From assembly GCA_034530615.2 (NCBI GenBank), contig JAVRCV020000051.1, forward strand, positions 32,001 to 96,000: DNA of 64,000 nt. Direction: 5' to 3'. Shown here one piece after another: positions 1 to 16,147 of the stretch (positions are counted from its first letter, which is position 1; each line of letters begins with the position of its first letter). Position numbers and translations under genes: made by a program. Below the pieces are notes generated by a model. It saw only the letters and a program-made list of their open reading frames with translations. It did no database searches and was not told where the DNA came from. The stretch comes from Aulosira sp. ZfuVER01 (GTDB lineage: Bacteria > Cyanobacteriota > Cyanobacteriia > Cyanobacteriales > Nostocaceae).

Positions 1-972
1 CATGGCTACCAGAAGACTTGTTTCCTCTGTATCAAATTCAGATAATTCAGGATCTGCTTTCCTTGCAGCACTCTTGGGTGCCCAAGCTGCATCAACAAAA
101 TAACCACGAAATGGCACACCTCCACGTAAGAGACGACCAACAGCTTGAATAACTAACCCAGCCGTAGTAGCAGCCAGGTCAAATCGCGGAAAAGACAGTA
201 ATTCCTGATGATCGCGCAGGATTTTATAGTAAGAACGTTGCTCAACCGATCGCCAATAACGCGCTGCCAATTGACGCACCTTTTCTGCACGTTGTACAAT
301 TCCATCTCCCTGTTGCCATGCCACAAAATCTGCTTTATCTGCCCAGTCTAAAGCGCGACGGTTCATTTCTTGGGCGATCGCTTGTGTATCATGGGGGTGT
401 GGATATGGACGAGTGAGAAAATATACAGCACCAAATGCAGCTTTACCATGAATATTCAAAATATTGAACCCACGTCCGATCGCATTCATCGGTGCAACTA
501 GAATCTTGGCTTTTATTTGCCCAAAAGTCTCAATATCTGCGCGGTTCAGCGCACCTTTATCATTTGATTTGGCAAATTTTTCGCCTTCATCAAGGTCATC
601 TTCTGTGTATGTATCAGTATTATCAGGAACTAAGTGATAAACTAATTCCTGCATACTTGACCAACAATTACGGATCTCGTTTGCTACCCAACGGGCTTGA
701 TCGTAAGAGTTGACTAGTAGTAAAAGGCGATCGAGATCGCGCCAGTGGTTATCAGCATCACGATCGCCAATATATTTCAATTCTCGAAGTTCTTGCCCTA
801 GATGACCTGTGCCGTTAGTCCCAACAAGCGATCGCGCTATTTCCTGCAATAAGCTCATTTTGCGTCGTTCAGACATACCAGAAATGCGGAGAGGTTGGTT
901 CTTTTGGTTGAATTGGGGAAGAAACTTGAAGAAGCTTTGGGCGATCGCCTCACTCGCCTCCTGTTCTGGCAT
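1..972 (-). pseudogene. C-terminal part of a DinG-like helicase of the pPIWI-RE three-gene island type; 5'-truncated and runs off the window's left edge
   Basis: Manual translation gives an open frame from ATG 972 to base 1: MPEQEASEAIAQSFFKFLPQ...LLLLVNSYDQARWV...ILVAPMNAIGRGFNILN..AAFGAVYFLTRPYPHPHD...VIQAVGRLLRGGVPFRGYFVDAAWAP. An in-frame stop lies at about 1030, so no Walker A/DExH domain is present. Confidence 0.75.
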
Positions 973-1057
973 CAAAACAGCGTGGGCATTATCAAGGTGA
1001 AAACTAGCAAATCTGAAAAGTAGAACGTTTCAGAGATAGTCAGCAAAATAGAACCAC

Positions 1058-1079
1058 ATTGACTACTAAAGTTGTCAAT
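1058..1079. promoter_or_regulatory. Palindromic operator-like site with outward-facing TTGAC elements
   Basis: ATTGACTACT-AA-AGTTGTCAAT, 10-bp arms with one mismatch, in a divergent intergenic region. Confidence 0.45.
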
Positions 1080-1100
1080 AAGTGGCGAAAAGTTACATTT

Positions 1101-1128
1101 TTGACAAAATTTAGTTCAGATGTATTAT
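1101..1128 (+). promoter_or_regulatory. Candidate sigma70 promoter of the PLD-helicase gene
   Basis: TTGACA (1101)-16 nt-TATTAT (1123), about 30 nt before ATG 1161. Confidence 0.5.
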
Positions 1129-1160
1129 TATCTATAGTTCAAACGTATTAGCACTGAGTT

Positions 1161-3851
1161 ATGACTGATTCTCCGCCAAGATCCTGGTTTGATTCCAAGA
1201 CAATCTATGAACAAATCCAATACCACTTCCCAAAGTGCCAATCAAAAATACGTATTGCATCTGGCTATTTTACTGTAAACGGCTGGGATCAGATTCGGGA
1301 TGTTGTAAAAGGAAAGTATGTTGATCTGTTAGTTGGAATTAACGAACGAACTCAAAGACAAGACGAAAGACACGCACAGCACCTTCTAATCCAAGAAATC
1401 AAGAAAGATTTAGCAACAGGATCATCACCAGGTAATCGCCGTCAAGCTGTAGCAGATTTAGTTAATAGAATTCGGACGGGTCAATTTCGGATTGTTGATG
1501 CACGTGCTAGGAAACATCATGCAAAACTTTACTTTGTTGACTGTAAGGTTGTCATCATTACCTCAGCCAATTTAACGAAACATGGCTTAATGCAACAGGT
1601 TGAAGCTGGTAATCCACTGAGTCGGAAGAAGGAAATTGTAAAACTTGTCAAGAAATTTGATGGATATTTTGCTGAAGCAGTAGATTTAACTCAGAGGCTA
1701 CTTAAAGCTCTTGAAGATTGGTTGAAACTTGCTACTCCGTGGGATATTTACCTCAAAACCTTACTTGCTTTTGAGGATGTAGAAATTGATAATAAGTATA
1801 CTCCGCCAACGAATTATCAAAGAGCAATGATTGCTGAAACTTTACAGAAAATAAGCGATCACAGCGGAGTCATGTTGGTTGCTTCAACAGGACTTGGAAA
1901 GACCGTTGTTGCTACTCACCTCGCCTTGAAACTTTTTAGATCAAATGAAATTATACATGTATTGATTATTGGCCCGAAATTAGTTAAAAGGCAATGGCAG
2001 TCTGAATTTATGGATGCGGGTATCCCTCAGACCTATATCGGCTATCAAGCTTTAGATAAAGAAGATCCAAGCCATGATCGTAATCTTGAACACTTTATCG
2101 AAATAGAAGAAAAAATAAATAAGCAATGGCTCATTATTATTGATGAATGCCATCTATTCAGAAATTGCCATGATAGTGCAGAAGGCCCTAGAAGGCGCTC
2201 ATTCCAAAGATTGATTTCACGAATTAAAGAAAGTGGCTGTAAAGTCTTACTTCTAACTGGCTCACCTTACTCTAAAGATATTAGGAATCTCAATCACCAA
2301 ATTCTGCTTCTACCTCACACTGCGGAAATTGAAACTTTTTCAGATAAACAAAACAAGAACAATTTCAATTGGCATACAGATAGTATAAAAGGATTTATTA
2401 ACTTGCCTGTTGTGTCTCAATTAACTACACCTTATGTTGCACAACAGTATGGAAAGAAGCTAGAGACTGGCATATTAATTGAGTTTGGACAGCAAAAGCG
2501 ATATATTCCGCTTGTCAAGTTATATCGAGTTAATTTCCATTTATTCATGGAAAGTGAAATTTCTCAAGTTTTTAGGGATGGTTGCTTTACCGTTAATGAT
2601 CCTCCAGCGTCACGCAAGTTTATAGAGACGCAAGCAGAAGTTGCCTGGGTTAGTTCACCGTGGGCACTTCGCGAAATTATCAAAAAGGTTATTAATACCC
2701 CAGGCAAGCGAAACTTGTCATACGAATTTGGGTTTGAAATGTCTCAATCTCAGCGCCGTGAAATATTAGAGCCGCTCCTAAGTCGATTAAACCAAATGCA
2801 GTTTACTGAGGATCACAAACTTGCATCTCTATGTAACTTTCTCCAAAAAGCTCACTTTAATAGTAAAAAAATTATCATTTTTTGTGAGCGTCGTGCAACA
2901 GTGGTTTATCTTGTTGAAGCCATTAATGCTTTACTTCCCAATCTGCGAGTATTTGGCACAATTAAGCAAGCAAAAGGTCAATATGTGCATAGAAGCGACC
3001 GAGAGATTTTCCAGGCAATTAAAAAGTTTGCGCCAGTTGCAAACAGAGCCGAAGGAAAATACAAAGAGACTTACGAAATTTTTATTTCAACCGATGCTCA
3101 TGGTGTTGGCATTAATCTACAAGACGCACCTGTAGTTATTAATTATGATTTAGCTTGGACAGCTATTGAACCTACACAAAGAGCAGGCCGTGTTCTAAGA
3201 CCCTGGATTGAACCGCGTAATGTGGAGCTTTACACTTTTGTTCCACCACTAGAAGGTGATGCTTTACGTGATTTAGGCATTGCAAAACGTTACAGTAACC
3301 TAGCAAATCGCCACAGTCAATCTCAAGAAATTATGGAGCTTCCTGTTCTATCTATAAATGAGAAAGAAGAAGTTAATTTTTTCAACAATGTATCCAAAGT
3401 AACAATTCAATCGGGTGTACTTGATTTAGAGGCTTTAGTCGATGACAATATATCACCATATTATCACCATGCATCTAAGCTGTATAATAACCGCGACTAT
3501 GCTCGAAAGATTCGTGATGATATTATTAGTGCAAAAATTTATTCAGGGCGAACAATTTTGATTTACGTCTTGTTTAAACACGAAGATGAATACAAATGGG
3601 CTGTTTATGAACCTAAGTCAAAAAGCTTGCGGAACATATCACGTAATCAATTACTTGATTGGCTGGAATGTAAAGAACATACTGAACTTGCCCTCGTTAA
3701 TACTGATGAAATTGAAGAACTTAGCTATGCTTGCATAAAAGAGTGGTCTAAACAAAATAATGCTAATTTAGATGATATTGTCAGAGAATGTGCAATGTAT
3801 CTCAAACCATCACATCAAACTGATGATGTTGAAAGTTTAGCTAGATATTAG
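1161..3851 (+). CDS. PLD(HKD)-family nuclease fused to an SF2 (SNF2/restriction-subunit-like) helicase, 896 aa; candidate defence protein
   Basis: IASGYF, HAKLYFVD and SANLT (PLD nuclease); ASTGLGKT (Walker A), IIIDECH, LLTGSP, IFCERRATV, GVGINLQ, YDLAW and QRAGRVLR (helicase motifs). Confidence 0.85.
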   Translation: MTDSPPRSWFDSKTIYEQIQYHFPKCQSKIRIASGYFTVNGWDQIRDVVKGKYVDLLVGINERTQRQDERHAQHLLIQEIKKDLATGSSPGNRRQAVADLVNRIRTGQFRIVDARARKHHAKLYFVDCKVVIITSANLTKHGLMQQVEAGNPLSRKKEIVKLVKKFDGYFAEAVDLTQRLLKALEDWLKLATPWDIYLKTLLAFEDVEIDNKYTPPTNYQRAMIAETLQKISDHSGVMLVASTGLGKTVVATHLALKLFRSNEIIHVLIIGPKLVKRQWQSEFMDAGIPQTYIGYQALDKEDPSHDRNLEHFIEIEEKINKQWLIIIDECHLFRNCHDSAEGPRRRSFQRLISRIKESGCKVLLLTGSPYSKDIRNLNHQILLLPHTAEIETFSDKQNKNNFNWHTDSIKGFINLPVVSQLTTPYVAQQYGKKLETGILIEFGQQKRYIPLVKLYRVNFHLFMESEISQVFRDGCFTVNDPPASRKFIETQAEVAWVSSPWALREIIKKVINTPGKRNLSYEFGFEMSQSQRREILEPLLSRLNQMQFTEDHKLASLCNFLQKAHFNSKKIIIFCERRATVVYLVEAINALLPNLRVFGTIKQAKGQYVHRSDREIFQAIKKFAPVANRAEGKYKETYEIFISTDAHGVGINLQDAPVVINYDLAWTAIEPTQRAGRVLRPWIEPRNVELYTFVPPLEGDALRDLGIAKRYSNLANRHSQSQEIMELPVLSINEKEEVNFFNNVSKVTIQSGVLDLEALVDDNISPYYHHASKLYNNRDYARKIRDDIISAKIYSGRTILIYVLFKHEDEYKWAVYEPKSKSLRNISRNQLLDWLECKEHTELALVNTDEIEELSYACIKEWSKQNNANLDDIVRECAMYLKPSHQTDDVESLARY

Positions 3852-3862
3852 TACTTTATATC

Positions 3863-4060
3863 CACTGGTTACAAGTGCCACCTGCTGAGTTATTCAGAAC
3901 TACAGATGCGGATCAATTGAATACACCTGAAGCGATCGCCATTCAACTACGAGCTGACAAAAACCTTGATCCAGCGATTGCTAATGCTTTAGCGTCTCTA
4001 GTCAAAGCAGCCTATCAAGACCTTTCTCAAAAAGATAGCGAATACAAGCAAGACTCTTGA
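3863..4060 (+). pseudogene. C-terminal half of an XRE-family HTH regulator (HTH part lost)
   Basis: HWLQVPPAELF...PEAIAIQLRADKNLDPAIANALASLVKAAY resembles the tail of the XRE regulators paired with ImmA/IrrE. The frame begins 11 nt after the helicase stop. Confidence 0.55.
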
Positions 4061-4062
4061 CT

Positions 4063-4119
4063 ATGTCATTGATTGAAAAACTATCACCTGAATTTAGGCA
4101 ACGCTGTGAGGCGATCGCA
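4063..4119 (+). pseudogene. N-terminal stub of an ImmA/IrrE-like metallopeptidase, cut at a HIP1 site
   Basis: MSLIEKLSPEFRQRCEAIA directly follows the XRE remnant. The sequence turns abruptly AT-rich after GCGATCGC at 4111-4118. Confidence 0.4.
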
Positions 4120-4425
4120 TACTATAAATATTTATTACAAAATTTTTGTAAAAATACTTACTTTGAGATGAAATTCTTAGAAAGCACAAAACTATATATA
4201 TTATTAAAATTTTCTCCAGTAGCTTATTTTGTCGTAAATTTTATAAGTAATCAGGGATATTTGGGATAGTTTAGCTTTAAGCAATAGCCCAAGTAGTTTA
4301 AATCAAAAATTTCCCATTTGCTGCCTAGCTTTGCTGACAATATATCAAGGGCTATACATCAGCGCTTGAGACGAGCGCGATATCGTAAACAGCAGATTGA
4401 TAGTCTAAATAGTGAGACTCAAAAC

Positions 4426-4752
4426 GTGAAATATTTTTTTCTATCTGAAGGATGGACAGTGTCTAGAGTCTGGGCCTCTGATGGACTCTGGCAGATCACC
4501 GCTTGGCGACGCCAACCAGATATTCAGAAACTGAATATTTGTCTGGTAGAAAATAATGAATTGTTATGGCTTTATCGAGTTGAAGAGGCCGTTTTAACTG
4601 TAGAAGTGAAGCCAACAACAGCAGTACTGGCAACTACTACCATCGGTCAAGTAGTGCTGAAGCGTTTGATGACAGCTGAACAAGTAATCGAACGCCTGGG
4701 TACGGCCGAGGCCAAGTGTCAACTGCAAAACATTCAATCGGTGGCGCAGTAA
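4426..4752 (+). CDS. Conserved cyanobacterial hypothetical protein (GTG start preferred over the 4318 track start)
   Basis: VKYFFLSEGWTVSRVW..GLW...AWRRQP...IGQVVLKRL, protein-like composition. Confidence 0.65.
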   Translation: MKYFFLSEGWTVSRVWASDGLWQITAWRRQPDIQKLNICLVENNELLWLYRVEEAVLTVEVKPTTAVLATTTIGQVVLKRLMTAEQVIERLGTAEAKCQLQNIQSVAQ

Positions 4753-4757
4753 GAAGC

Positions 4758-4838
4758 GGGGCATGGGGCATTGGGCATTGGGCATTGATTATTTCTCCTT
4801 GTCCCCTTGTCCCCCTCATCCCCTTCACTTCCATCCTT
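4758..4838. repeat. STRR heptamer/nonamer tandem repeats
   Basis: (GGGCATT)n followed by CCTTGTCCC-type units. Confidence 0.85.
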
Positions 4839-5278: not shown

Positions 5279-6808
5279 ATGGGACTACCCTGGTACCGAG
5301 TACACACAGTCGTTCTGAATGATCCAGGACGGCTGATTTCTGTACACTTGATGCACACAGCTCTAGTGGCAGGCTGGGCTGGTTCGATGGCATTGTACGA
5401 ACTAGCTGTTTATGACCCCAGCGATCCAGTTCTCAACCCAATGTGGCGTCAAGGGATGTTCGTATTACCCTTCATGTCACGTTTGGGTGTCACTCAATCT
5501 TGGGGTGGTTGGAGTGTTACTGGTGGCCCAGCAACCGATCCTGGTTTCTGGTCATTTGAAGGTGTTGCTGCGGCTCACATTGTTCTTTCTGGTCTTTTGT
5601 TCTTAGCTGCTGTTTGGCACTGGGTTTACTGGGATTTGGAACTCTTTAGAGATCCTCGTACTGGTGAACCTGCTCTAGACTTGCCAAAGATGTTTGGCAT
5701 TCACCTGTTCTTATCTGGTCTACTTTGTTTTGGCTTCGGTGCTTTTCACCTCACTGGACTATTTGGCCCGGGAATGTGGATTTCTGATGCCTTTGGAGTC
5801 ACAGGTAGCGTCCAGCCAGTAGCACCAGAATGGGGGCCAGCTGGCTTTAACCCCTTTAATCCTGGTGGCGTTGTTGCTCACCACATAGCTGCTGGGATCG
5901 TCGGCATTATTGCAGGCTTATTCCACCTCACAGTCAGACCACCCGAACGGCTCTACAAAGCCTTGCGGATGGGTAACATTGAAACAGTACTTTCTAGCAG
6001 TATTGCGGCAGTATTCTTCGCTGCCTTCGTGGTTGCTGGAACTATGTGGTACGGTAACGCTACCACTCCAATTGAACTGTTTGGCCCTACCCGTTACCAA
6101 TGGGATCAAGGCTACTTCCATCAAGAAATTGAGCGCCGCGTCCAAAACAGCGTTGCCAATGGCGCAAGCCTTTCGGAAGCTTGGTCACAGATTCCTGAAA
6201 AACTGGCTTTCTACGATTACGTGGGTAACAGCCCTGCCAAAGGCGGTTTATTCCGTACAGGGCCAATGGTAAAAGGTGATGGTATTGCCCAATCTTGGCA
6301 AGGCCACGCAGTATTCAAAGATTCTGAAGGCAGAGAATTGACAGTACGTCGTCTGCCCAACTTCTTTGAAACCTTCCCAGTCATCTTGACCGATGCAGAT
6401 GGTATTGTCCGCGCTGACATTCCTTTCCGTCGGGCAGAATCCAAATATAGCTTTGAACAATCTGGTGTAACTGTTAGCTTCTACGGTGGCGATCTGAACG
6501 GTCAAACCTTTACAGATCCAGCCGAAGTTAAGAAATACGCCCGTAAAGCTCAAGGCGGTGAAATATTTGAATTTGACCGGGAAACCTTGAACTCTGATGG
6601 TGTATTCCGCACCAGTCCCAGAGGTTGGTTTACCTTTGGACACGCTGTATTTGCTCTGCTATTCTTCTTTGGTCATCTCTGGCATGGTGCGCGTACAATT
6701 TACCGCGACGTATTTGCTGGTGTGGAAGCGGATCTAGAAGAGCAAGTTGAGTGGGGTCTATTCCAGAAAGTGGGTGACAAGACAACCCGCCGTAAGGAAG
6801 CTCTCTAA
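5279..6808 (+). CDS. psbB: Photosystem II CP47 protein
   Basis: [27 protein letters not shown]..., 509 aa, GAGGAGG RBS. Confidence 0.99.
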
Positions 6809-6811
6809 ATT

Positions 6812-6928
6812 CAGTGCTGAGTTATGAGTAACGAGTTCTGAGTTAAAGCTCTGACTCAGGACTCAGAAACGCCAGATGCTACAACGGAGGGAACCTCCGC
6901 AACGCACTGGCTCCTCAGTACTCAAAAC
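6812..6928. repeat. STRR (TGAGT/ACTCAG) inverted array carrying a 45-bp hairpin small dispersed repeat at 6869-6913
   Basis: GCCAG-A-TGC-TACAA-CGGAGG-GAA-CCTCCG-CAAC-GCA-CTGGC interrupts ACTCAG repeats. Confidence 0.75.
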
Positions 6929-6963
6929 TTTAATTACTGGCTGGATAGGCAGGAACTTGTGAT

Positions 6964-7068
6964 ATGGAAAGCGTTGCGTACATCTTAATTTTCACTCTGT
7001 GTATAGGAGTTCTCTTCTTTGCGATCGCATTTCGGGAACCCCCCCGGATTGCAAAGAAAGATGATTAG
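6964..7068 (+). CDS. psbT: Photosystem II reaction centre protein T (absent from ORF track)
   Basis: MESVAYILIFTLCIGVLFFAIAFREPPRIAKKDD, immediately downstream of psbB. Confidence 0.97.
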   Translation: MESVAYILIFTLCIGVLFFAIAFREPPRIAKKDD

Positions 7069-7106
7069 AACACTCTTACTAGACGTGTAAGGTCATACAA
7101 AGATAG

Positions 7107-7145
7107 ATATCCGCTGTTACCTCTTGGGGATCGGCGGATATTTAT
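7107..7145 (+). terminator. Hairpin after psbT
   Basis: ATATCCGCTG...CGGCGGATAT followed by a T-rich tract. Confidence 0.55.
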
Positions 7146-7527
7146 GTTTATTCGCTCTAGAGTTAATTTGCTGGGCAAAAATTACACTATCTATAATCAC
7201 TTTGATTTACGATCGATCCCGATCTTGGTAAAGAATCGGGGAAGACTTTGGTGTAAGCTAGAGGCTGGGTCAAATACCTTAATTATGAGTAATTTGATAA
7301 CAAATTATGAATCATGAGGTTGAAGCCCTTGGCGCTAGACATCAACTCCTGATAAATGACTTGTCACTAGACAGTATGATATAATCTTCTATCTGTGAAG
7401 TTGATATGTGTTGTTACTAGCTTTTCTGCGCTAGGATGAAATAGGTTTGGGCTGGCATGATATAGCTTGCCTAATAATTGCAATCGCGACAAAAAATTAC
7501 GGAGACTAGAACCAGGAACAAATTAGC

Positions 7528-8568
7528 ATGGTCAATCAGAATTTAACCGCTACAGAAATTGGATTTACACACGAAGATTTCGCTGCTCTACTTGATAAGT
7601 ACGATTATCACTTTAGCCCTGGTGATATTGTCCCAGGAACCGTTTTCAGTATAGAGCCGCGCGGCGCTCTGATTGACATAGGTGCGAAAACCGCAGCATA
7701 CATCCCTATACAGGAAATGTCTATTAACCGGGTAGATGCCCCGGAAGAAGTATTACAGTCTAACGAAACGCGCGAATTTTTTATTCTCACTGACGAAAAC
7801 GAAGATGGTCAGCTGACTCTTTCGATTCGTCGTATTGAATATATGCGGGCTTGGGAGCGTGTGCGCCAGCTGCAAGCTGAAGATGCTACAGTTCGTTCTG
7901 GTGTGTTTGCTACGAACCGTGGTGGTGCATTGGTGCGGATTGAGGGATTGCGTGGCTTTATCCCAGGTTCCCACATCAGCACTCGCAAGCCTAAAGAAGA
8001 ATTGGTAGGCGAAGAACTACCATTGAAATTCCTCGAAGTAGACGAAGAACGGAACCGCTTAGTTCTATCTCACCGTCGGGCGTTGGTTGAACGGAAGATG
8101 AACCGCCTCGAAGTTGGTGAAGTTGTGATTGGTACAGTGCGCGGTATTAAGCCCTACGGTGCCTTTATTGATATCGGCGGCGTTAGCGGTCTATTGCACA
8201 TCTCTGAAATTTCTCACGAACATATTGATACACCTCACAGCGTATTCAATGTCAATGATGAAGTGAAAGTAATGATCATTGATTTGGATGCAGAAAGAGG
8301 TCGGATCTCCTTGTCAACCAAACAGCTGGAACCCGAACCCGGTGACATGATTAAAAACCGCGATTTGGTTTACGATAAGGCAGAAGAAATGGCAGCCAAG
8401 TATCGCGAACAAATGCTAGCCAAACAACAAGGTGCTACTGCTGTTGCTGCTGAAGCTGTAGCTGAAGAAGACATCCCCTCAGCAATCGAAGAAGATATCC
8501 CCTCAGCAATTGAAGAAGATATCCCAGCAGCTATTGAAGAAGAAATTCCAGCAGCTATTGAAGAGTAA
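7528..8568 (+). CDS. rpsA: 30S ribosomal protein S1
   Basis: FTHEDFAALLDKYDYHFSPGD, three S1 domains (GFIPGSHIS, GLLHISEISH). Confidence 0.97.
   Translation: MVNQNLTATEIGFTHEDFAALLDKYDYHFSPGDIVPGTVFSIEPRGALIDIGAKTAAYIPIQEMSINRVDAPEEVLQSNETREFFILTDENEDGQLTLSIRRIEYMRAWERVRQLQAEDATVRSGVFATNRGGALVRIEGLRGFIPGSHISTRKPKEELVGEELPLKFLEVDEERNRLVLSHRRALVERKMNRLEVGEVVIGTVRGIKPYGAFIDIGGVSGLLHISEISHEHIDTPHSVFNVNDEVKVMIIDLDAERGRISLSTKQLEPEPGDMIKNRDLVYDKAEEMAAKYREQMLAKQQGATAVAAEAVAEEDIPSAIEEDIPSAIEEDIPAAIEEEIPAAIEE
8464..8565 (+). repeat. 24-bp tandem repeat (about 4 copies) encoding the EEDIP(S/A)AI tail of S1
   Basis: GAAGAAGAYATCCCCTCAGCAATY units. Confidence 0.9.
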
Positions 8569-8610
8569 TACACTGGTATTTGTCTGTAATTAAAAACATG
8601 AAAGTTTTTC

Positions 8611-8638
8611 AAAAAGGGGGATTTTCCCTCTTTTTTTA
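8611..8638 (+). terminator. Intrinsic terminator after rps1
   Basis: AAAAAGGGGG-ATTTT-CCCTCTTTTTTT. Confidence 0.6.
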
Positions 8639-8703
8639 TGGTATTCATGGGCACAATTTTGAATTTTTAATTGATATGTAAGGGTGAAAAAGGGTGAAAG
8701 ATT

Positions 8704-9438
8704 TTGGTAACTATTAAATGCGGAAATATCACATTTCCGAATATTCAAGCTATTTTGTTTGATAAAAACGGGACTTTAGAAGATTCAGAAGCGTATTTGC
8801 GATCGCTCGCACAAAGAGCCGCAAGATTAATAGACGCGCAAATTCCTGGTATTGGGGAACCCTTACTTATGGCATTTGGGGTTAATGGCAATAGCCTCGA
8901 TCCCGCAGGTTTAATCTCCGTCGCCAGTCGCCGCGAAACAGAAGTTGCCGCCGCCGCATATATTGCTGAAACTGGTAGAGGGTGGTTCGAGTCTTTAACA
9001 ATTGCCCGTCAAGCTTTGGATGAAGCCGAAAAATACATTGCTCAAACTCCTTCCCCACTGTTTGTTGGTAGCTTAGAGGTGTTGATGTCTCTTTCCGAAG
9101 CAGGATTAAAACTTGGTATCCTCTCAGCAGCGACAACTCAAGAAGTACAAAGCTTTGTAGCTCATCACAAGTTAAGTGATTACATCCAGCTAGAAATGGG
9201 AGTAGATGAAGGGCCAAGTAAGCCAGATCCCATCTTATTTTTAAAAGCTTGCCAAGGTTTAGGAGTAGAACCAAGCGCCACATTAATGGTTGGTGATTCT
9301 GTAGGTGATATGCAAATGGCACGCAATGCTAACGCCGCAGGTTGCATAGGGATCACTTGGATTGGGAAATCAGATCATGTTAAAGGTGCAGATGTGGCGA
9401 TTAACCAGCTTGAAGAAATTCAAATTTTTGCACTCTAA
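8704..9438 (+). CDS. HAD-family hydrolase
   Basis: ILFDKNGTL, SKPDP, MVGDSVGD. Confidence 0.9.
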   Translation: MVTIKCGNITFPNIQAILFDKNGTLEDSEAYLRSLAQRAARLIDAQIPGIGEPLLMAFGVNGNSLDPAGLISVASRRETEVAAAAYIAETGRGWFESLTIARQALDEAEKYIAQTPSPLFVGSLEVLMSLSEAGLKLGILSAATTQEVQSFVAHHKLSDYIQLEMGVDEGPSKPDPILFLKACQGLGVEPSATLMVGDSVGDMQMARNANAAGCIGITWIGKSDHVKGADVAINQLEEIQIFAL

Positions 9439-9616
9439 AGGCGACGTAATAAGTAGCTTCCAAACAGCCTGGAGGGAAACTAAGTTTTTCCAATTAAACC
9501 AATATTTCCAAGCTTTTTGAAAAGTGGTGTCGGCAAAGCCTACTTGAAGCAACTGTAGTTACAGAAGGCAGAATTATTTTCTAAAACCTTCTGCCCTCTG
9601 CCTTCCTTGAGTCAAG

Positions 9617-10633
9617 CTACTTGCCAAACACACTGCCAAGGGCACGAGCCATATTTTGTGGTTGCATCGCATCCATCGCTGCTGTTGGTTCATAGCCACA
9701 GTGAACCATGCAATCGGCACACTTGGGATTACCACTGGCGCGACCGTATTGGCTCCAGTCGGTATCTTCTAGCAATTCCTTGAAGGTGGAATAATATCCT
9801 TCATTTAATAGATAGCAGGGTTTTTGCCAACCAAGAACGCTGTAACTTGGGCTACCCCAAGGTGTACATTCGTAGTCTTTCTCACCAGTGAGGAAGTCTA
9901 AGAATAGAGGGTTGTGATTGAAGTTCCAGTTTTTCTCTCCAGCTTTATGGGGGGCAAGGATTTCGCGGAAAAGGGCACGTGTTTGTTCGCGCTTGAGAAA
10001 GTGATTTTGGTCTGGTGCCCATTCGTAGCTGTAGCCAGGCGAAATCATCATGCCATCAGTATCCAGGGTTTCCAGGAAGTCGAAGAACTCCTGCATTTCT
10101 TTGGGGTCAGTACCCTCAAAAATGGTCGTGTTAGTTGTGACACGAAAACCCTTAGCTTTAGCAGCGCGAATGGCTTTGACAGCAATATCAAATACGCCTT
10201 GGCGATCGACACATTGATCGTGTAACTCGCGCATCCCATCTAAATGAACGCTAAAAGTTAAGTAATGGGAAGGTTGAAATTTATCCAGGCTTTTTTCTAA
10301 CAACAAACCATTGGTACACAAGTAAATATATTTCTTGCGCTCAACTAATCCCTTAACAATCTCATCAATTTGGGGATGTAGTAGCGGTTCTCCCCCAGGA
10401 ATTGAGACAACAGGTGCGCCGCACTCTTCCACAGCGGCGAAGCACTGTTCTGGGGTTAAATTTTGCTTGAGTATCTCTGGTGGATGCTGGATTTTTCCAC
10501 AACCATTACAAGCTAGGTTACACCGGAAAAGCGGTTCCAACATCAATACTAAGGGAAAGCGTTTGCGCCCTTTCAAGCGCTGAGTCACGAGATATTTCCC
10601 GATATCTATAGCTTGTTGTAAATTAATCGCCAT
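9617..10633 (-). CDS. hpnH: Adenosyl-hopene transferase (radical SAM)
   Basis: [27 protein letters not shown]-terminal [14 protein letters not shown] 10633 preceded by GAGGAG. Confidence 0.93.
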
Positions 10634-10675
10634 CGAACTGTTCACTCCTCTGTTACGTTGAAACACACCACATTC

Positions 10676-11728
10676 TCAGCTCCCAGATAAATCTGTAGGG
10701 CCTTTAATTTTGAATTTTGAATTTTGAATTTTGAATTCCCCTAAGGGGTTGACATATCCCCTACTAACAAACCAATCAACAGCATCCTGAAGTGCTATCT
10801 TCAGGGAAGACTGAGGTAAGCCCAACTCTTGTACTGCTTTTGAGGCATCGTAGTACATTGGTTGTTGAGCCATGCGCACACCATCTAATGGTACTGAGGG
10901 TGATTTTCCCAAAGGTGCGAGAATTTTTTCATCAACCCAAGCAACGCTAAGGGGTAGCCAAGCAGGTACAGCCTTTTGCGGTGCTTTTAACCCTGTAATT
11001 TGGGCGAGTTGTTCTAAAAGTTGCTTCAGGGTGAGATTTTGATGTCCTAAAATATAGCGATCGCCTGATTTTCCTCGCTGTAAAGCTAGTAAATGCCCCC
11101 AGGCTACATCGCGCACATCAATAAAATTCAGCCCTGTATCCACATAAAATGGCATTTGCCGTCGTAAAAACCGCAAGATAATATCACCTGTTGGCGTAGG
11201 TTTAATATCCAATGGCCCGATTGGGCTACTAGGATTGACCACAACTATTTCCTGACCTGCACTAGCTGCTTGCATGGCTACTTGTTCCGCCAGAAATTTC
11301 GACTTTTTGTAGTGACCAACCAATTTTTCCAAGGGACTCTGATGAGTTTCATCTACGACTTTACCAGATTCCCCTACCCCAATTGCAGCCACCGAGCTAG
11401 TATATACAGTGCGTTCAATCCCAGCTTTTTGCGCTGCTGCTAACACATTGCGCGTACCTTGGACGTTGTGGCGGTAGAGTAACTCTTGGTCTGTTTGCCA
11501 TAGGGAATAATGAGCTGCAACATGAAATAGGTACTGACAACCCAGCATTTGCTGCCAGAGATCTGAGTCATTTAGATCTCCCTGGACAATTTCTACCTCT
11601 AGCCCTTGTAAATTCTCTAGGTTGCTGCTGGGGCGTACCAGCGCCTTCACAGCATATCCTTCTTGCCGCAACCGCCGTACTAAGTGGGCACCGATAAAAC
11701 CCGTACCCCCAGTGACAAAGGCTTGCAT
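10676..11728 (-). CDS. hpnA: Hopanoid-associated NAD-dependent epimerase/dehydratase
   Basis: MQAFVTGGTGFIG, YKKSK, IKPTPTGDII. ATG 11728 overlaps the upstream TAA (TAATG). Confidence 0.9.
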   Translation of the reverse strand: MQAFVTGGTGFIGAHLVRRLRQEGYAVKALVRPSSNLENLQGLEVEIVQGDLNDSDLWQQMLGCQYLFHVAAHYSLWQTDQELLYRHNVQGTRNVLAAAQKAGIERTVYTSSVAAIGVGESGKVVDETHQSPLEKLVGHYKKSKFLAEQVAMQAASAGQEIVVVNPSSPIGPLDIKPTPTGDIILRFLRRQMPFYVDTGLNFIDVRDVAWGHLLALQRGKSGDRYILGHQNLTLKQLLEQLAQITGLKAPQKAVPAWLPLSVAWVDEKILAPLGKSPSVPLDGVRMAQQPMYYDASKAVQELGLPQSSLKIALQDAVDWFVSRGYVNPLGEFKIQNSKFKIKGPTDLSGS

Positions 11729-14451
11729 TAGGGAATCCACCTTTTTTGAAAACGCGGAAACCAATCATCTAATATGGCGTAGACCACAGGCACAACAATT
11801 AAACTGAGGACAGTTGAAGTTACCAATCCGCCAGCGATCGCAACAGCCATAGGCGATCGCAATTCTGAACCTGCACCTAAACCTAAGGCGATGGGAACCA
11901 TACCTAAGATTGTGGCCGCAGTGGTCATCATGATTGGTCTAAGGCGCACTGGCCCGGCTTTGAGGATAGCGTCTTTACGTTCCAGCCCAGAGTTACGCAA
12001 TTGGTTGATGTAATCCACAATCAGAATGGCATTCTTATTGGTGATACCCAACAAAAACACAAAGCCAATCAGTGAAATCATGCCGAAATCACTCTTAGTT
12101 ATTAGTAGCGCCAGCATCGCCCCCACCAAAGCTAAGGGCAAAGAAATGCCAATCACTACAGGGTCTACCCAGCTTTTAAATAGCCAAATCAGTACCACCA
12201 CAATGCAAAGAGCTGATAGAGCTAAGGTAGTGCCGAAACTGCCAAAAACTTCACCCAAACGGGCAGAATCTCCTCCCAGGTCTAAAGACACACCTGAAGG
12301 CAATACAGCTTTAGCTTCTGCTACTACCTTATCAGTAGCATCACCTAAAGACATATCTTTGCCCAGGTTAGCGCCAATATAAGCTACTCGTTGATTATTC
12401 AGTCTCTCAATCTGAAAAATTTGATCGTTTTGATTGCTTTCACCTGTAACAGTAACATCAGCAAATCCCGATAGTTTTACTAATCTGTCTTTAATTGCTT
12501 TAGCTGCCTTGCTGAGTTCTTTGAGGTCATTACCTCTTAATGCCAACTGTAAGGGTTTTTGACCACCAGTATCAACAAATTGAATATCTTCCACACTGGT
12601 TGTTACATTCGGCAGATTTGGTAAAGAAGTACGGAATTGCTCTTGTAATTCCGCAGTTGTGATTTTGCGGTCTTCCTTGAGCTTGACATAAATTGTGCCT
12701 TTATTTGGCTCACCTTCACGGGAACCAACGGTGGTAAATACTGTTTCTACAGCTGGTGATTTTCTTACGACCTCTTCCAGTTTCTTAGCAACTTGCAGAG
12801 AATCGTCTAAAGGATTAGAAATTGGCCGTTGGGATTGGGCATTAGCAATTTGTGAATTAGCTATTTCCCCTTGTCCCCCTTGTCCTGCTTGTGCTTGTGC
12901 TGCCTGTGCCTGTGCTGCCTTTAAATGCTCAGGTAAACTCAGGAGAGGAGCAGTGTAGGTAATATTAAATTCACCGCGATCGAGTTTGGGAATAAATCCC
13001 TTGGGAATCATGGGAACGATCGCTATACCCGCAATGAAGCTGAGTAAAGCTAAACTCATGACTATGCGCTTGTGATCCAAAGACCAAGACAGCAAATCTC
13101 GGTAACTTTGGGCAAAGCCAATCCATAGCTTAGATTCGCGACGGCGAGAATGGGACGATGCGGGTTTGAGCCAGTAGATAGAAAGTACCGGCGACAAAGT
13201 CCTGGCTACTAGCAACGAAGCCAGCATAGCAGCAGAAACAGTAATACCAAAGGGTTTGAAGAATTGACCAATTACTCCACCCATCAACCCAATTGGCAGA
13301 AAAACTGCGACTGCGGTAAAAGTTGCGGCTGTGACTGTCAGTCCAATTTCATTGGTAGCAATCAGCGCCGCTTGGCGGGGAGTTTCACCATCTTCGACGT
13401 GGCGCATGATGTTTTCTACATCCACAATCGCGTCATCGACAATACTACCAATCACCAAAGCCAAGGCTAACAGGGTAATGGTTTCTAGGTTGAAGCCAAA
13501 AAACGCCATGACTATAAATGTTGCCAACAAAGATGTCGGAATCGCCAAGGCAGAAATTAAGGTAGCTTGCCAATTCCACAAAAAGGGAAAGATGACAATT
13601 ACCGATAACACAATTGCTTCAATCAAAGCGTCGATTGTGGAATGGGTGGCGTTGCGGATATACTCAGCCTGAGTGGCGGCTAAAGTGAGTTGGACATCCT
13701 TGAGAGAAGACTGCAGCTTTTGGACTTCTTGCTCAACTCGGCTCACCACTTCCAAAGTATTGGCTGTGCCTTTTTTTATTACCTGAAATGCCAAAGCATC
13801 TTTACCGTTGAAGCGCACTAAGGTAGACCCGCCTTCCGGTAAAGCAGCTGTATTGGCTGCTAGCTGGGGAGGAGAAGTACTAGGCGCACCCAACAGCACT
13901 ACTTTTAGTACTCCTGGTAGTTTAGCGATCGCTGGCTGAATTTTGTCTTTTGCCAACTTCGTCAAATCAGTAAGATTCCCAGAAGGATTCTCAATGGCAT
14001 AACTAATGGCAGCTGACTCATTCAGATTCAGGGGAATAATTTTATAATTTGCTCCCTTAGTTAGAGTCAACTTTTTGAGCGCATTCTCGACTTTGCGTGT
14101 GGAATTTTCGAGATTTGTCCCGACAACAAAAGACAAACTAACCGCAGTTTGCCCTGGATAAGTGGATGAGCGAATATCCTCAATTCCTTCCAGTGATTGC
14201 AAACGCTGTTCTATTGGTTGAGTAAGTTTTGTCTCTGTATCCAGGGCTGATTCTATGGGGGCAGTAGCATTTACGACCACCACAGGAAAAGTAATGTCTG
14301 GAAACAAAGCATACTTGAGGGAACTGAAAGCCAAAAGCCCAGCTACCGTCACGGCAATCCAAAAACCTACCGTCAGCCACGAAAATTCAATCGCCAATCT
14401 AGAAATATTGAAGCGTTCTCGTGCAGATTTTGAGCTATTAGGCTTGACCAT
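11728..14451 (-). CDS. RND-family (AcrB/AcrD-like) transporter permease, 907 aa
   Basis: IGSIVDDAIVDVENI, GITNKNAILIVDY, RLRPIMMTT, PMAVAIAGGL. Confidence 0.92.
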   Translation of the reverse strand: MVKPNSSKSARERFNISRLAIEFSWLTVGFWIAVTVAGLLAFSSLKYALFPDITFPVVVVNATAPIESALDTETKLTQPIEQRLQSLEGIEDIRSSTYPGQTAVSLSFVVGTNLENSTRKVENALKKLTLTKGANYKIIPLNLNESAAISYAIENPSGNLTDLTKLAKDKIQPAIAKLPGVLKVVLLGAPSTSPPQLAANTAALPEGGSTLVRFNGKDALAFQVIKKGTANTLEVVSRVEQEVQKLQSSLKDVQLTLAATQAEYIRNATHSTIDALIEAIVLSVIVIFPFLWNWQATLISALAIPTSLLATFIVMAFFGFNLETITLLALALVIGSIVDDAIVDVENIMRHVEDGETPRQAALIATNEIGLTVTAATFTAVAVFLPIGLMGGVIGQFFKPFGITVSAAMLASLLVARTLSPVLSIYWLKPASSHSRRRESKLWIGFAQSYRDLLSWSLDHKRIVMSLALLSFIAGIAIVPMIPKGFIPKLDRGEFNITYTAPLLSLPEHLKAAQAQAAQAQAGQGGQGEIANSQIANAQSQRPISNPLDDSLQVAKKLEEVVRKSPAVETVFTTVGSREGEPNKGTIYVKLKEDRKITTAELQEQFRTSLPNLPNVTTSVEDIQFVDTGGQKPLQLALRGNDLKELSKAAKAIKDRLVKLSGFADVTVTGESNQNDQIFQIERLNNQRVAYIGANLGKDMSLGDATDKVVAEAKAVLPSGVSLDLGGDSARLGEVFGSFGTTLALSALCIVVVLIWLFKSWVDPVVIGISLPLALVGAMLALLITKSDFGMISLIGFVFLLGITNKNAILIVDYINQLRNSGLERKDAILKAGPVRLRPIMMTTAATILGMVPIALGLGAGSELRSPMAVAIAGGLVTSTVLSLIVVPVVYAILDDWFPRFQKRWIP

Positions 14452-14566: not shown

Positions 14567-15031
14567 ATGACTCAATCTTTAGCTTTTGGGCTGTTTGGAA
14601 TTGCCCATGATCCTAAAGTATTGCTTGAGCAACTCTTCACAATTTTCGATCCAATTTTGGACAAAGAAGCTCGGTATATTGTCTTTTTTGTCAAATGGTT
14701 TACCTATATCCAAATTAATCGCGGTCAAGGACTTTTACCTCTGCGGATCGTCAGAACTCTCTAGTATTACGGAAAAGCACTGAGCAATTTAATTACCGCC
14801 TTTGGCGATTCCGATTCCAGTGGTATTGGTTTCACCGCTACTAGCGCAAGCACTTTCACCGACGACCTGACATTAGAAAAGTTTCTCGGAGTGTGCATTC
14901 AAGAAAATCGTCAAAGGATGAGTAAGTATGATTCCCGACTACTCAATCCAGAATTAATGCCCAGACTTGCTAGTATTGCGTTACGCACTTTTCAATTAAT
15001 ACCCCACCGACTCAAGCCTCAAACTGTATAA
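14567..15031 (+). pseudogene. 5'-truncated ferritin-like domain protein with an internal stop
   Basis: SLAFGLFGIA...LFTIFDPILDKEARYIVFFVKWF (degenerate DEEARH-type motif). TAG at 14762-14764, then the same frame stays open (YYGKALSNL...CIQENRQRMSKYDSRLLNPELMP) to TAA 15031. Confidence 0.6.
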
Positions 15032-15091
15032 AGGGCGTGTGGGGAAAGTGGAGAGAAATGGGACAAGGGAGAAACTGCGTTGTAAACTTAT

Positions 15092-15418
15092 GAGGCTTTT
15101 AGCTCCGTGAACGAGGCTTTTAGCTCCGTTAATGAGGCTTTTTGCTCCGCTAACGAGGCTTTTAACTCCGTGAACGAGGCTTTGAACTCCGTTCGCGAGT
15201 CTTTTAGCTCCGTTAATGAGGCTTTTTGCTCCGTTGACGAGTCTTTTAGCTCCGTGAATGAGGCTTTTAGCTCCGTGAACGAGTCTTTTAGCTCCGTTGA
15301 CGAGGCTTTTAGCTCCATTAATGAGTCTTTTAGCTCCATTAATGAGGCTTTTAGCTCCGTGAACGAGGCTTTTAGCTCTGTTAATGAGGCTTTTAGCTCC
15401 GTTAATGAGGCTTTTAGC
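15092..15418. repeat. 21-bp tandem repeat, 15 full units plus a partial one
   Basis: Consensus GAGGCTTTTAGCTCCGTKAAY, contiguous, no spacers. Confidence 0.97.
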
Positions 15419-15454
15419 CTTGAAAATCTGAGCTTGACCAATGACTAATAACAA

Positions 15455-16147
15455 ATGACAGACATCCAACTAATTCTTGTACCCCAAGGAGCAGAGTATA
15501 AAGCTGTGAGTCGTGGCTTAACCCGTGTCACTAGCTCAAATACCACTGTAGTTCCTATTCCCGTGGGTGTAAAAGCTCTAAGCGCATATCTGCACAAATT
15601 GCAACAGGATGGAAGGTTGCGGAATCAACCACAAGCGAAAGTGCTATTGATGGGTTTGTGTGGTAGTTTATCCCCCAGCTACCCTGTAGGAAAAATCGTG
15701 TTGTATGAAAACTGTGTTTATCAGGGGAATGTGCGCGAGTGCAATGGCACTTTCACAGCACAGTTGTACTCAGCACTCAAAACTCATATCTCAGCACTCG
15801 ATTTAGTTAAGGGACTAACAAGCGATCGCGTGCTTTGTTCCGCTGTGGAAAAACGCCAACTTGGTGAGACTCTAGGAGCTGATGTTGTAGATATGGAAGG
15901 ATTTGCAGTTTTAGAGTTTTTCCATCAAGTGGGGGCATCAGTAGCAATGTTGCGTGTAGTCAGCGATGATTGTCAACATGATATCCCTGACCTGACATCG
16001 GCAATCAGCCCTGATGGTTCCCTGAAGCCTTTACCCCTAACATTAACATTACTTCGACAACCTATTGCGGCTACCCGTTTAATTCGAGGTTCCTTACAAG
16101 GATTGAAAGTATTAGAGGAAGTAACCGCGTTATTATTTTCTAGTTAA
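15455..16147 (+). CDS. Nucleoside phosphorylase family protein (HpnG-like)
   Basis: LLMGLCGSL, GADVVDMEG, LRVVSDD; located inside the hopanoid cluster. Confidence 0.8.
   Translation: MTDIQLILVPQGAEYKAVSRGLTRVTSSNTTVVPIPVGVKALSAYLHKLQQDGRLRNQPQAKVLLMGLCGSLSPSYPVGKIVLYENCVYQGNVRECNGTFTAQLYSALKTHISALDLVKGLTSDRVLCSAVEKRQLGETLGADVVDMEGFAVLEFFHQVGASVAMLRVVSDDCQHDIPDLTSAISPDGSLKPLPLTLTLLRQPIAATRLIRGSLQGLKVLEEVTALLFSS

Follow-up and report, generated by a model that had tools for sequence, protein, structure and literature searches.

A methyltransferase-free PLD-Snf2 fusion gene in a pPIWI-RE-type island of Aulosira: probably a single-gene defence system

Introduction

Can a nuclease and a DNA motor fused in a single gene act as a defence system with no methyltransferase (MTase) or other partner beside them? 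The question is raised by a gene at positions 1161..3851 (+ strand) of a 64,000-nucleotide stretch of the genome of the cyanobacterium Aulosira sp. ZfuVER01 (Nostocaceae; assembly GCA_034530615.2, contig JAVRCV020000051.1, positions 32,001 to 96,000), referred to throughout as the window (G000:C51:32001-96000, G000 being the genome that bears it). On the basis of motifs, profile matches and the ratio of nonsynonymous to synonymous substitutions (dN/dS), the gene encodes an intact 896-aa fusion of a PLD nuclease with a Snf2 motor of the RapA type. An earlier note, made from the sequence alone, had put the gene forward as an undescribed single-gene defence system within a decayed defence locus. 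The evidence assembled here suggests that the gene, which is made of known parts, probably protects by itself against phages or plasmids. What is new is the MTase-free variant; the design, a PLD nuclease and an SF2 motor in one gene, is already known.

An Intact Nuclease-Motor Fusion under Purifying Selection

The open reading frame (ORF) starts with ATG, contains zero internal stops and is present in one copy in the genome. The PLD nuclease domain (aa 24-167; 1230..1661, + strand) matches Pfam PLDc_2 over the same residues at E 2e-8, above the cut-off, and holds a single HKD motif, HAKLYFVD (H120-K122-D127; 1518-1541, + strand), followed by SANLT at residues 135-139. The SF2 motor comprises two RecA lobes (aa 216-369 and 553-680; 1806..3200, + strand) of the Snf2/RapA/DrmD type, which match Pfam ResIII (216-366), DEAD and Helicase_C (553-680) and include Walker A ASTGLGKT (241-248), DECH (328-331), TGSP (366-369) and QRAGR (673-677). 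Among 50 aligned homologues, picked out of 120 listed, the PLD residues H120, K122, D127, S135, N137, G142 and E148 are invariant in 50/50, as are the Walker A residues, D328-E329, G367-P369 and the QRAGR residues. Snf2-family ATPases head the PDB profile matches of the family, the top PADLOC match of the protein is C3a139, 'HKD+Snf2', and NCBIfam matches likewise place the motor in the Snf2/RapA type. An intact ORF of 896 aa with one HKD motif and a full SF2 set, as the earlier note had described it, is thus confirmed by the ORF itself, by Pfam and by the alignment of homologues. The gene is under purifying selection, with an overall dN/dS of 0.27 (28 pairs from 8 intact close copies) and values of 0.42 for the PLD part, 0.20-0.29 for the motor and 0.21 for the C-terminus. 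A second clade (clade B, that of the window gene being clade A; 971 aa, 28.5% identical) has a dN/dS of 0.215.

Absence of a Conserved Partner

Clustering of 957 ORFs from 81 loci yielded no conserved partner beyond site-specific synteny. Neighbouring MTases were sought with phmmer, using 13 MTase/BR queries, and with motif patterns at the 46 loci that have at least 3 kb on both sides; 35/46 gave no MTase match, and the matches at the other 11 (two of them weak) belong to differing classes. A same-strand MTase lies directly upstream in one locus only (L097), and that MTase has a Snf2 gene of its own. No large N6-MTase is found at the window locus. The genome, which is 99.99% complete, has 0 matches to DUF499 (PF04465) and DUF1156 (PF06634), DUF3780 not having been searched for, and three queries with pair-type MTases gave no tblastn match at E 1e-8; its MTase matches are one of HsdM type, two weak N6, three clear N6/N4 and two C5. 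The gene therefore stands without an adjacent partner, as had been claimed from the sequence, and its homologues are not regularly accompanied by a cognate methyltransferase.

The C-terminal Domain

The final ~200 aa had been called uncharacterised. No Pfam family was found for the C-terminal domain in 44 members; the region appears to hold an alpha+beta domain of RapA type that is common to MTase-paired relatives, and in this it is not new. An AlphaFold model of residues 691-896, built from 44 sequences, predicts this domain at aa ~785-886 (3513..3818, + strand), with a core at pLDDT 83-97 made of a four-strand meander, two helices and a fifth strand. In a second-look structural search the best match is RapA (8spg 795-968; Z 6.4, rmsd 3.6, 100 residues); three RapA entries head that search, the next unrelated fold reaching Z 5.1. 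In RapA, BrxHII and the BR helicases a Snf2-type motor is likewise followed by a five-stranded alpha+beta C-terminal domain (PMC12839542), and the model agrees moderately with that domain in position and topology. The N-terminus of RapA is Tudor-like, whereas the window protein has a PLD domain there; the C-terminal region is ~207 aa long against ~370 in RapA, so that the degenerate restriction endonuclease (REase)-like domain of RapA appears to be reduced or absent; the C-termini of RapA and the BR proteins show no sequence-level similarity to it, and the TIGR/NF RapA model scores 16.5 against a cut-off of 576 bits.

For the domain alone, no PDB sequence match below E 0.1 and no Foldseek match at E 0.001 was found, the leads from the ESM Atlas are all sub-0.9 (one has RapA_C in 10% of its members), and HHalign comparisons with the C-termini of RapA, BR helicases and MtsD were negative. 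The C-terminal region is homologous to those of the sister clades (99% by profile) and, by HHalign, to the C-termini of MTase-paired PLD-Snf2 proteins (95.6-97.4%; reversed-alignment control 0.3%), and for this reason it is better seen as inherited motor architecture than as a new reader. By its dN/dS it is no more variable than the motor, which at the sequence level sets it apart from target-recognition domains that diversify. The confidently modelled core revealed no domain that would read modifications, and no SRA or PUA proteins stand among the matches listed from a wide structural search, which does not exclude one.

Relation to Known Systems

Among single-gene enzymes the design is known from SauUSI, an ATP-dependent type IV enzyme (PDB 7CLG) with an N-terminal PLD nuclease, an SF2 motor and a C-terminal domain and, reportedly, no companion methylase (PMC7913695, PMC3141236). 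The window protein shares its domain order, an intact HxK PLD with an SF2 motor and the lack of a cognate MTase. At its C-terminal end, however, SauUSI has a helical coupler followed by an SRA domain that reads 5-methylcytosine and 5-hydroxymethylcytosine, whereas the C-terminal domain here best matches RapA. SauUSI is not among the 60 PDB matches listed of 79 for the family profile, nor is it matched by the PLD domain alone. Membership in the SauUSI class would hinge on an SRA/PUA reader in the C-terminal region, of which the confident part of the model matches RapA best (Z 6.4) and residues ~690-765 are modelled at low confidence.

The MANTIS protein MtsD (also Gao_RL or the type-2 BREX-related effector) resembles the window protein as an HKD-Swi2/Snf2 fusion; it carries its HKD nuclease N-terminal to a Snf2 motor, is ~900 aa long and forms a dimer with one PLD site (10.64898/2026.09.23.753747). 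MANTIS needs a DUF499 ATPase, DUF3780 and a DUF1156 MTase, whereas the Aulosira genome lacks matches to DUF499 and DUF1156. The MtsD C-terminus is ~100 aa and has no similarity to that of the window protein, which scores 71 bits against the 1100-bit cut-off of NF042964, and MtsD falls in a separate, distant clade.

Closer relatives are found in two-gene modules of a PLD-Snf2 protein and a large N6-MTase, whose helicases have an N-terminal HKD, a Snf2 motor and a homologous C-terminal region and form the nearest tree outgroup with known gene context. In 4/4 distant plasmid matches opened, a large MTase lies within 1-3 genes of the helicase. The helicases of these modules are only 22-25% identical to the window protein over the N-terminal half, are 200-250 aa longer and, in those four records, are always MTase-coupled. 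C3a139, a table entry for a type III CRISPR-adjacent HKD+Snf2 family (PMC6546367), scores 167-180 bits for the MTase-paired proteins against 75 for the window protein. One such helicase lies on the Synechocystis plasmid pSYSX beside an 1100-aa MTase, which from its size and plasmid would be slr6050/M.Ssp6803IV, a gene for which full deletion was reportedly not achieved (PMC6105098).

The DISARM models give 55 against 610 bits for DrmD and 32 against 133 bits for DrmC, and no DrmA/DrmB core, MTase or separate DrmC occurs within 18 kb upstream or 15 kb into the window, no genome-wide search having been made. Mokosh type II combines an N-terminal Upf1-like (COG1112) RNA helicase with a C-terminal PLD (10.1101/2022.05.11.491447), an order opposite to that of the window protein with its SF2 motor. 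The protein lies outside MANTIS, DISARM, Mokosh II and the two-gene module, and it matches no described system at the cut-offs of PADLOC and NCBIfam. In this respect the claim of an undescribed single-gene system stands, though the design is familiar from SauUSI and from the PLD-Snf2 effectors of MANTIS and type-2 BR. No description of the family was found in literature searches, which mostly left subscription papers outside their coverage; the supplements of PMC12839542 may list stand-alone HKD-Snf2 proteins, and PMC13069673 excluded single-gene systems by design.

Replacement within a pPIWI-RE Island

The host island belongs to the type of the three-gene pPIWI-RE system (REase, DinG, pPIWI-RE; PMC3702460), with a divergent pair of HTH and IrrE/ImmA genes. 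At the window locus this triad is incomplete, the REase being deleted and DinG cut while pPIWI-RE remains at full length. On the left, the C-terminal part of a DinG helicase (~residues 813-1210 of ~1210 aa; PADLOC PprDinG, E 1e-54) occupies 1..1090 on the - strand; its ORF of 359 aa extends from 975 across the left edge of the window as far as G000:C51:31896. A full pPIWI-RE ORF of 990 aa stands immediately upstream, outside the window (L001 14899-17871) with pPIWI_RE_X/RNaseH_pPIWI_RE and PprPIWI matches, and beyond it an ABC substrate-binding gene. On the right, the C-terminal half of an HTH_3 repressor (residues ~57-121; 3864..4060, + strand), recognised by its match to an intact 121-aa HTH protein (L018), is followed by the first 19 codons of an IrrE/ImmA-type metallopeptidase (4063..4119, + strand), cut at the HIP1 site 4111-4118, where the island ends. 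The view that both neighbours are cut on the side facing the gene is therefore correct. The view that the locus is decayed needs correction: with a full 990-aa pPIWI-RE ORF just upstream, it is not wholly decayed.

The replacement could be mapped base by base against the helicase-free island of a same-genus genome (G007; L018) at the same chromosomal site. Homology ends at 1090, up to which the DinG remnant is 90% identical to the intact island at the DNA level, and restarts at 3864, so that the incoming cassette (1091..3863, + strand) consists of the predicted promoter, the ORF and 12 bp. It stands in for ~3.4 kb of ancestral island, namely the N-terminal half of the HTH gene, the REase, cargo and the N-terminal part of DinG (to ~residue 812). 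These junctions uphold the proposal that the gene was recently acquired and replaced part of a pPIWI-RE-type island. The truncation of ImmA at the HIP1 site 4111 was an event separate from the cassette replacement; homology to genomes with an empty site restarts at 4131. A second island deletion that ends at a HIP1 site is seen in L112, where DinG-to-pPIWI is joined at 11912 (the joint corresponds to L113 11815).

The site, upstream of psbB (site A), was compared across 14 same-genus genomes. It is empty in 8/14, holds HTH/ImmA remnants with other cargo or a contig end in 4/14, and holds the helicase-free island in G007 and the same helicase in one more (G008). In the G007 island ImmA-HTH is divergent from REase-cargo-DinG-pPIWI, and an insertion sequence splits pPIWI. 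Site A is a cargo hotspot (L021 3533-10837, L022 3912-17234); in G009 a tyrosine-recombinase-like gene and a five-gene cluster lie between ImmA and a pPIWI remnant, and in G013 unrelated genes follow ImmA.

As the earlier note had it, HIP1 sites are absent from the ORF and present in its flanks at 374, 828, 941, 3932 and 4111, and the argument built on them is weak for one ORF: 232/2942 equal-size tiles of the genome are HIP1-free too. The ORF has 37.4% GC against 41.3% for the genome, and a GC3 of 0.28 compared with 0.27 in the resident pPIWI gene. Low GC and the absence of HIP1 from a single ORF were accordingly rejected as strong evidence of acquisition. The family as a whole is HIP1-poor, since 51 cyanobacterial loci hold 12 HIP1 sites in 135 kb of gene (0.09 per kb), while their flanks have 471 in 602 kb (0.78 per kb), a count that drops 29 loci (non-cyanobacterial or without an ORF) and in which kin are not independent. 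The predicted sigma-70-like promoter TTGACA-16-TATTAT (1101..1128, + strand), which the earlier note had assigned to the gene, is with 11/12 positions the best match in 900-4400. That region has 12 such sites against a shuffle mean of 11.3, a number at chance, and close relatives keep the -10 part, only some of them the -35 hexamer.

Probable Movement between Islands

The 13 closest loci (L032-L043 and L045; 85-93% identical) lie at three chromosomal sites, nine at site B, three at C and one at A, and DinG remnants are present in 13/13. In the four loci mapped, which represent sites A, B and C, the right junction falls at an identical base within the HTH gene, and the junction alignments of 10-11 relatives agree. 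Helicase-free islands also occur elsewhere: among 17 regions, site B has six full ones and one cut by a contig end, and site C has three. The window's island is a mosaic. In 300-bp bins its pPIWI-DinG part shows 88-96% identity with the island of G007, which has no helicase, and 76-90% with the islands at B and C that do carry one. The helicase shares 94-98% identity with four copies from B and C over its 5' half and 92-95% with the copy in G008 over its 3' part. Because the junctions are the same at three sites and the island is mosaic, spread by allelic exchange between resident islands is indicated, and the simplest reading would be one ancestral replacement followed by such exchange across genera, with the remnants as homology arms. 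De novo insertion of a whole composite island at each site was considered and rejected in view of the mosaic identity profile and of the helicase-free islands at all three sites. In another genus (code g35) the helicase stands next to a DinG remnant in 11 genomes. No att sites or terminal repeats were seen at the island ends by eye in the alignments, no repeat-finder search having been made, and a single integrase query detected no integrase inside pPIWI-RE islands.

The helicase is intact in seven of the 13 closest loci, broken in five and unclear in one, breakage of this kind being expected of costly defence genes. Clade B occurs in 13/389 family genomes (10 full, 3 partial); in 10/13, remnants of a paralogous glmS-linked pPIWI-RE island lie nearby at varied positions, and this clade reached the paralogous-island remnants independently. 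DinG matches are found in 99/389 family genomes and intact pPIWI-RE islands hold other cargo (AIPR and others), which argues that the islands are hotspots rather than functional partners. In Nostocaceae, islands of this kind with a divergent pair of HTH and IrrE/ImmA-type peptidase genes are present at four or more chromosomal sites (L018, L113-L117, L241-L256). Many different upstream contexts abut the clade-B gene at a single position, ~75 bp ahead of its ATG (L112 10901-11005; L162-L171), with an exact HIP1 at that point in 3/11 loci and a one-mismatch HIP1-like site in six more, a pattern that suggests HIP1-linked recombination.

Distribution and Relatives of the Family

The family is patchily distributed, being found in 12/401 genomes of the phylum and 3/15 of the genus; among the best 80 of 157 loci it also occurs in Chloroflexota, Bacteroidota and one Spirochaete. 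Full-length copies are present on four plasmid records, and an intact member (WP_012308634.1) lies on plasmid pAQ6 of Picosynechococcus PCC 7002, a host well suited to experiments. Relatives were not found on viral contigs, and phage records gave five partial matches, none reaching 80% coverage. An ESM Atlas cluster of 408 members, mainly cyanobacterial, is probably the family's own. In a quick maximum-likelihood tree (66/110 rows, 44 near-redundant ones dropped; LG+G4, SH-aLRT only, midpoint root) a branch (99) separates the family from the other rows; next to it come a clade bearing an additional N-terminal domain and then the MTase-paired PLD-Snf2 proteins, with MtsD distant. Members of this sister clade (P0234, P0238, P0243, P0250-P0252, P0255, P0262, P0263 and P0268) are 1035-1135 aa long and add a ~170-aa N-terminal domain to the same PLD-Snf2-C-terminal body; the domain gives sub-threshold matches to DUF7226, which is winged-helix-like, in 2/10 proteins. 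In two members from Chloroflexota the N-terminus is extended by a DUF4379 treble-clef zinc-finger region (L090 7491-10613; L094 7467-9629). A distant member in a Chloroflexales bin lies between a pair of Snf2 and Eco57I-like MTase genes and a 774-aa Piwi-domain Argonaute (L097 971-13446).

Favoured Explanation and Its Rivals

A defence role of the gene is very probable as judged from its sequence and context: invariant motifs, purifying selection, patchy spread, plasmid copies, defence neighbours and frequent breakage all support it. As to how it might act, the tentatively favoured explanation, given a probability of about 0.4, is a single-gene, MTase-independent defence nuclease-motor with a structure- or protein-complex trigger. 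By analogy with SauUSI and MtsD, where PLD domains with one HKD motif form dimers and the motor moves along duplex DNA (PMC7913695; 10.64898/2026.09.23.753747), two subunits would pair through their PLD domains so that two HKD half-sites form one active site, the Snf2-type motor would hydrolyse ATP and track along double-stranded DNA, and the PLD dimer would cut it. Lacking an MTase, such an enzyme would by default have to leave host DNA alone. Cutting might be permitted only once the motor or the RapA-type C-terminal domain encounters something peculiar to the invader. The candidates are a protein-DNA complex and a structure in the DNA itself (free end, fork, gap), as opposed to an unmethylated sequence chosen by a partner MTase; Druantia, Shedu and DISARM offer precedents for such triggers (10.64898/2026.05.13.724313). 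The family would derive from the same stock as the two-gene PLD-Snf2 and MTase modules and live without the MTase, and in Nostocaceae it would have entered a pPIWI-RE island once, with deletion of the REase and half of DinG, and then moved by homologous recombination through the DinG and HTH arms.

Several points weigh against this explanation. The wide structural search did not list RapA (best Z 4.8, for eL20), for which reason the RapA match is only moderate, and residues ~690-765, modelled at low confidence, could hide a reader. MtsD, a similar fusion, reportedly lacked nuclease activity in vitro and depends on MtsABC (10.64898/2026.09.23.753747); a protein of this appearance can thus require partners. 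A DUF499 gene is the immediate upstream neighbour in L083 and L103, and in L048 one is found two genes upstream. The defence neighbours speak for the explanation, a defence-type Pfam domain being found among the nearest genes at 28/68 loci outside the island clade, and an integrase, ParA or transposase at 10 more, but the tally scanned ~175/957 ORFs, has no matched control and includes near-kin loci.

Next in rank, and rather unlikely, is a SauUSI-like type IV dimer that reads a modified phage base absent from host DNA, translocates and shreds. Besides the shared domain order and missing methylase, there is a recognised class of PLD nucleases whose C-terminal modification sensors vary (PMC12191111), and the extra N-terminal domain of the sister clade, with its sub-threshold DUF7226 matches, fits as well; set against this, the C-terminal domain is conserved rather than diversifying, best matches RapA and is common to MTase-paired relatives, in which the MTase is the likelier specificity unit, and two C5 and several N6/N4 MTases in the host limit the marks that could be targeted. 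It is quite unlikely that the gene lies outside defence, as a RapA-like motor-nuclease that clears stalled transcription complexes or R-loops, or as selfish hitch-hiking cargo. RapA, whose C-terminal fold it has in common, removes post-termination RNA polymerase and prevents R-loops (10.1101/2024.09.28.614012), and several loci lie amid housekeeping genes (FtsH, LeuRS, GroEL, TIM), but the family is patchy, plasmid-borne, often broken, HIP1-poor and often found beside defence and mobile genes, and the same C-terminal architecture is known from BREX/BR defence helicases (PMC12839542).

Two further explanations invoke a partner. Less likely still than a role outside defence is an orphaned effector served by an MTase or recognition complex from another locus, in the way that MtsD depends on MtsABC, or one that backs up an adjoining system. 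The nearest relatives of characterised type are MTase-coupled in the plasmid matches opened and DUF499 lies upstream of the gene, directly or two genes away, at the loci named above; the Aulosira genome, however, lacks DUF499, DUF1156 and a pair-type MTase, neighbouring MTases are of differing classes, the systems beside the gene in L070, L083 (a helicase-nuclease), L086, L095, L097 and L107 have a helicase or nuclease of their own, and purifying selection persists while the gene moves alone. Last, and very improbable, comes an effector swap in which pPIWI-RE would find the target and bring in the PLD-Snf2 protein as a substitute for the REase and DinG that it has lost. That two unrelated clades, at 28% identity, both sit in pPIWI-RE islands (A in 13/13 close loci, B in 10/13), that the window retains a full pPIWI-RE and that the distant member in L097 adjoins a long Argonaute would all suit it. 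Yet a near-full pPIWI ORF is kept in only 4/13 of the clade-A relatives, against an intact helicase in seven, pPIWI has lost the upstream start of its operon and points away from the helicase, clustering shows no pPIWI-RE neighbour at the 67 other loci, and the hotspot nature of islands that also carry AIPR and other cargo explains the overlap.

Flanking Genes and Repeats

Beyond the island, the genes in window 5279-14451 are, to judge by their sequences, ordinary ones: psbB, ribosomal protein S1, a HAD hydrolase, a hopanoid-pathway radical-SAM gene with an epimerase, and an RND exporter. A short tandem-repeat patch at 4758-4830, after a gene at 4318-4752, has numerous further copies in relatives. 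At 14996-15469 the minus strand holds a 157-aa ORF built of 7-residue repeats; patch and ORF presumably belong with the short tandem repeats of cyanobacteria.

Implications

In the described PLD-SF2 restriction motors, as far as the available sources go, specificity comes from a partner MTase complex (MANTIS) or from a fused modification reader (SauUSI). The PLD-Snf2 family has, as far as could be tested, neither an MTase partner nor a reader, and yet it is kept intact and spreading. A broader proposal, unlikely as a whole, is that the protein is an autonomous restriction-type effector that has shed its MTase, has no base reader, and with its RapA-type motor and C-terminal domain senses a protein-DNA complex or DNA structure of the invader (phage transcription or replication complexes and R-loops would be examples) and then cuts, while displacing pPIWI-RE, itself a predicted R-loop-targeting system, across genera by allelic exchange. 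If true, PLD-Snf2 enzymes as a class would have a new self/non-self rule, and the islands would offer a clear example of a defence system that has overwritten another time and again. The locus in any case documents the exchange of cargo between defence islands without an integrase. The family would add a defence gene that PADLOC and NCBIfam models miss in cyanobacteria, Chloroflexota and Bacteroidota, and it may possibly form a barrier to DNA transfer in Nostoc.

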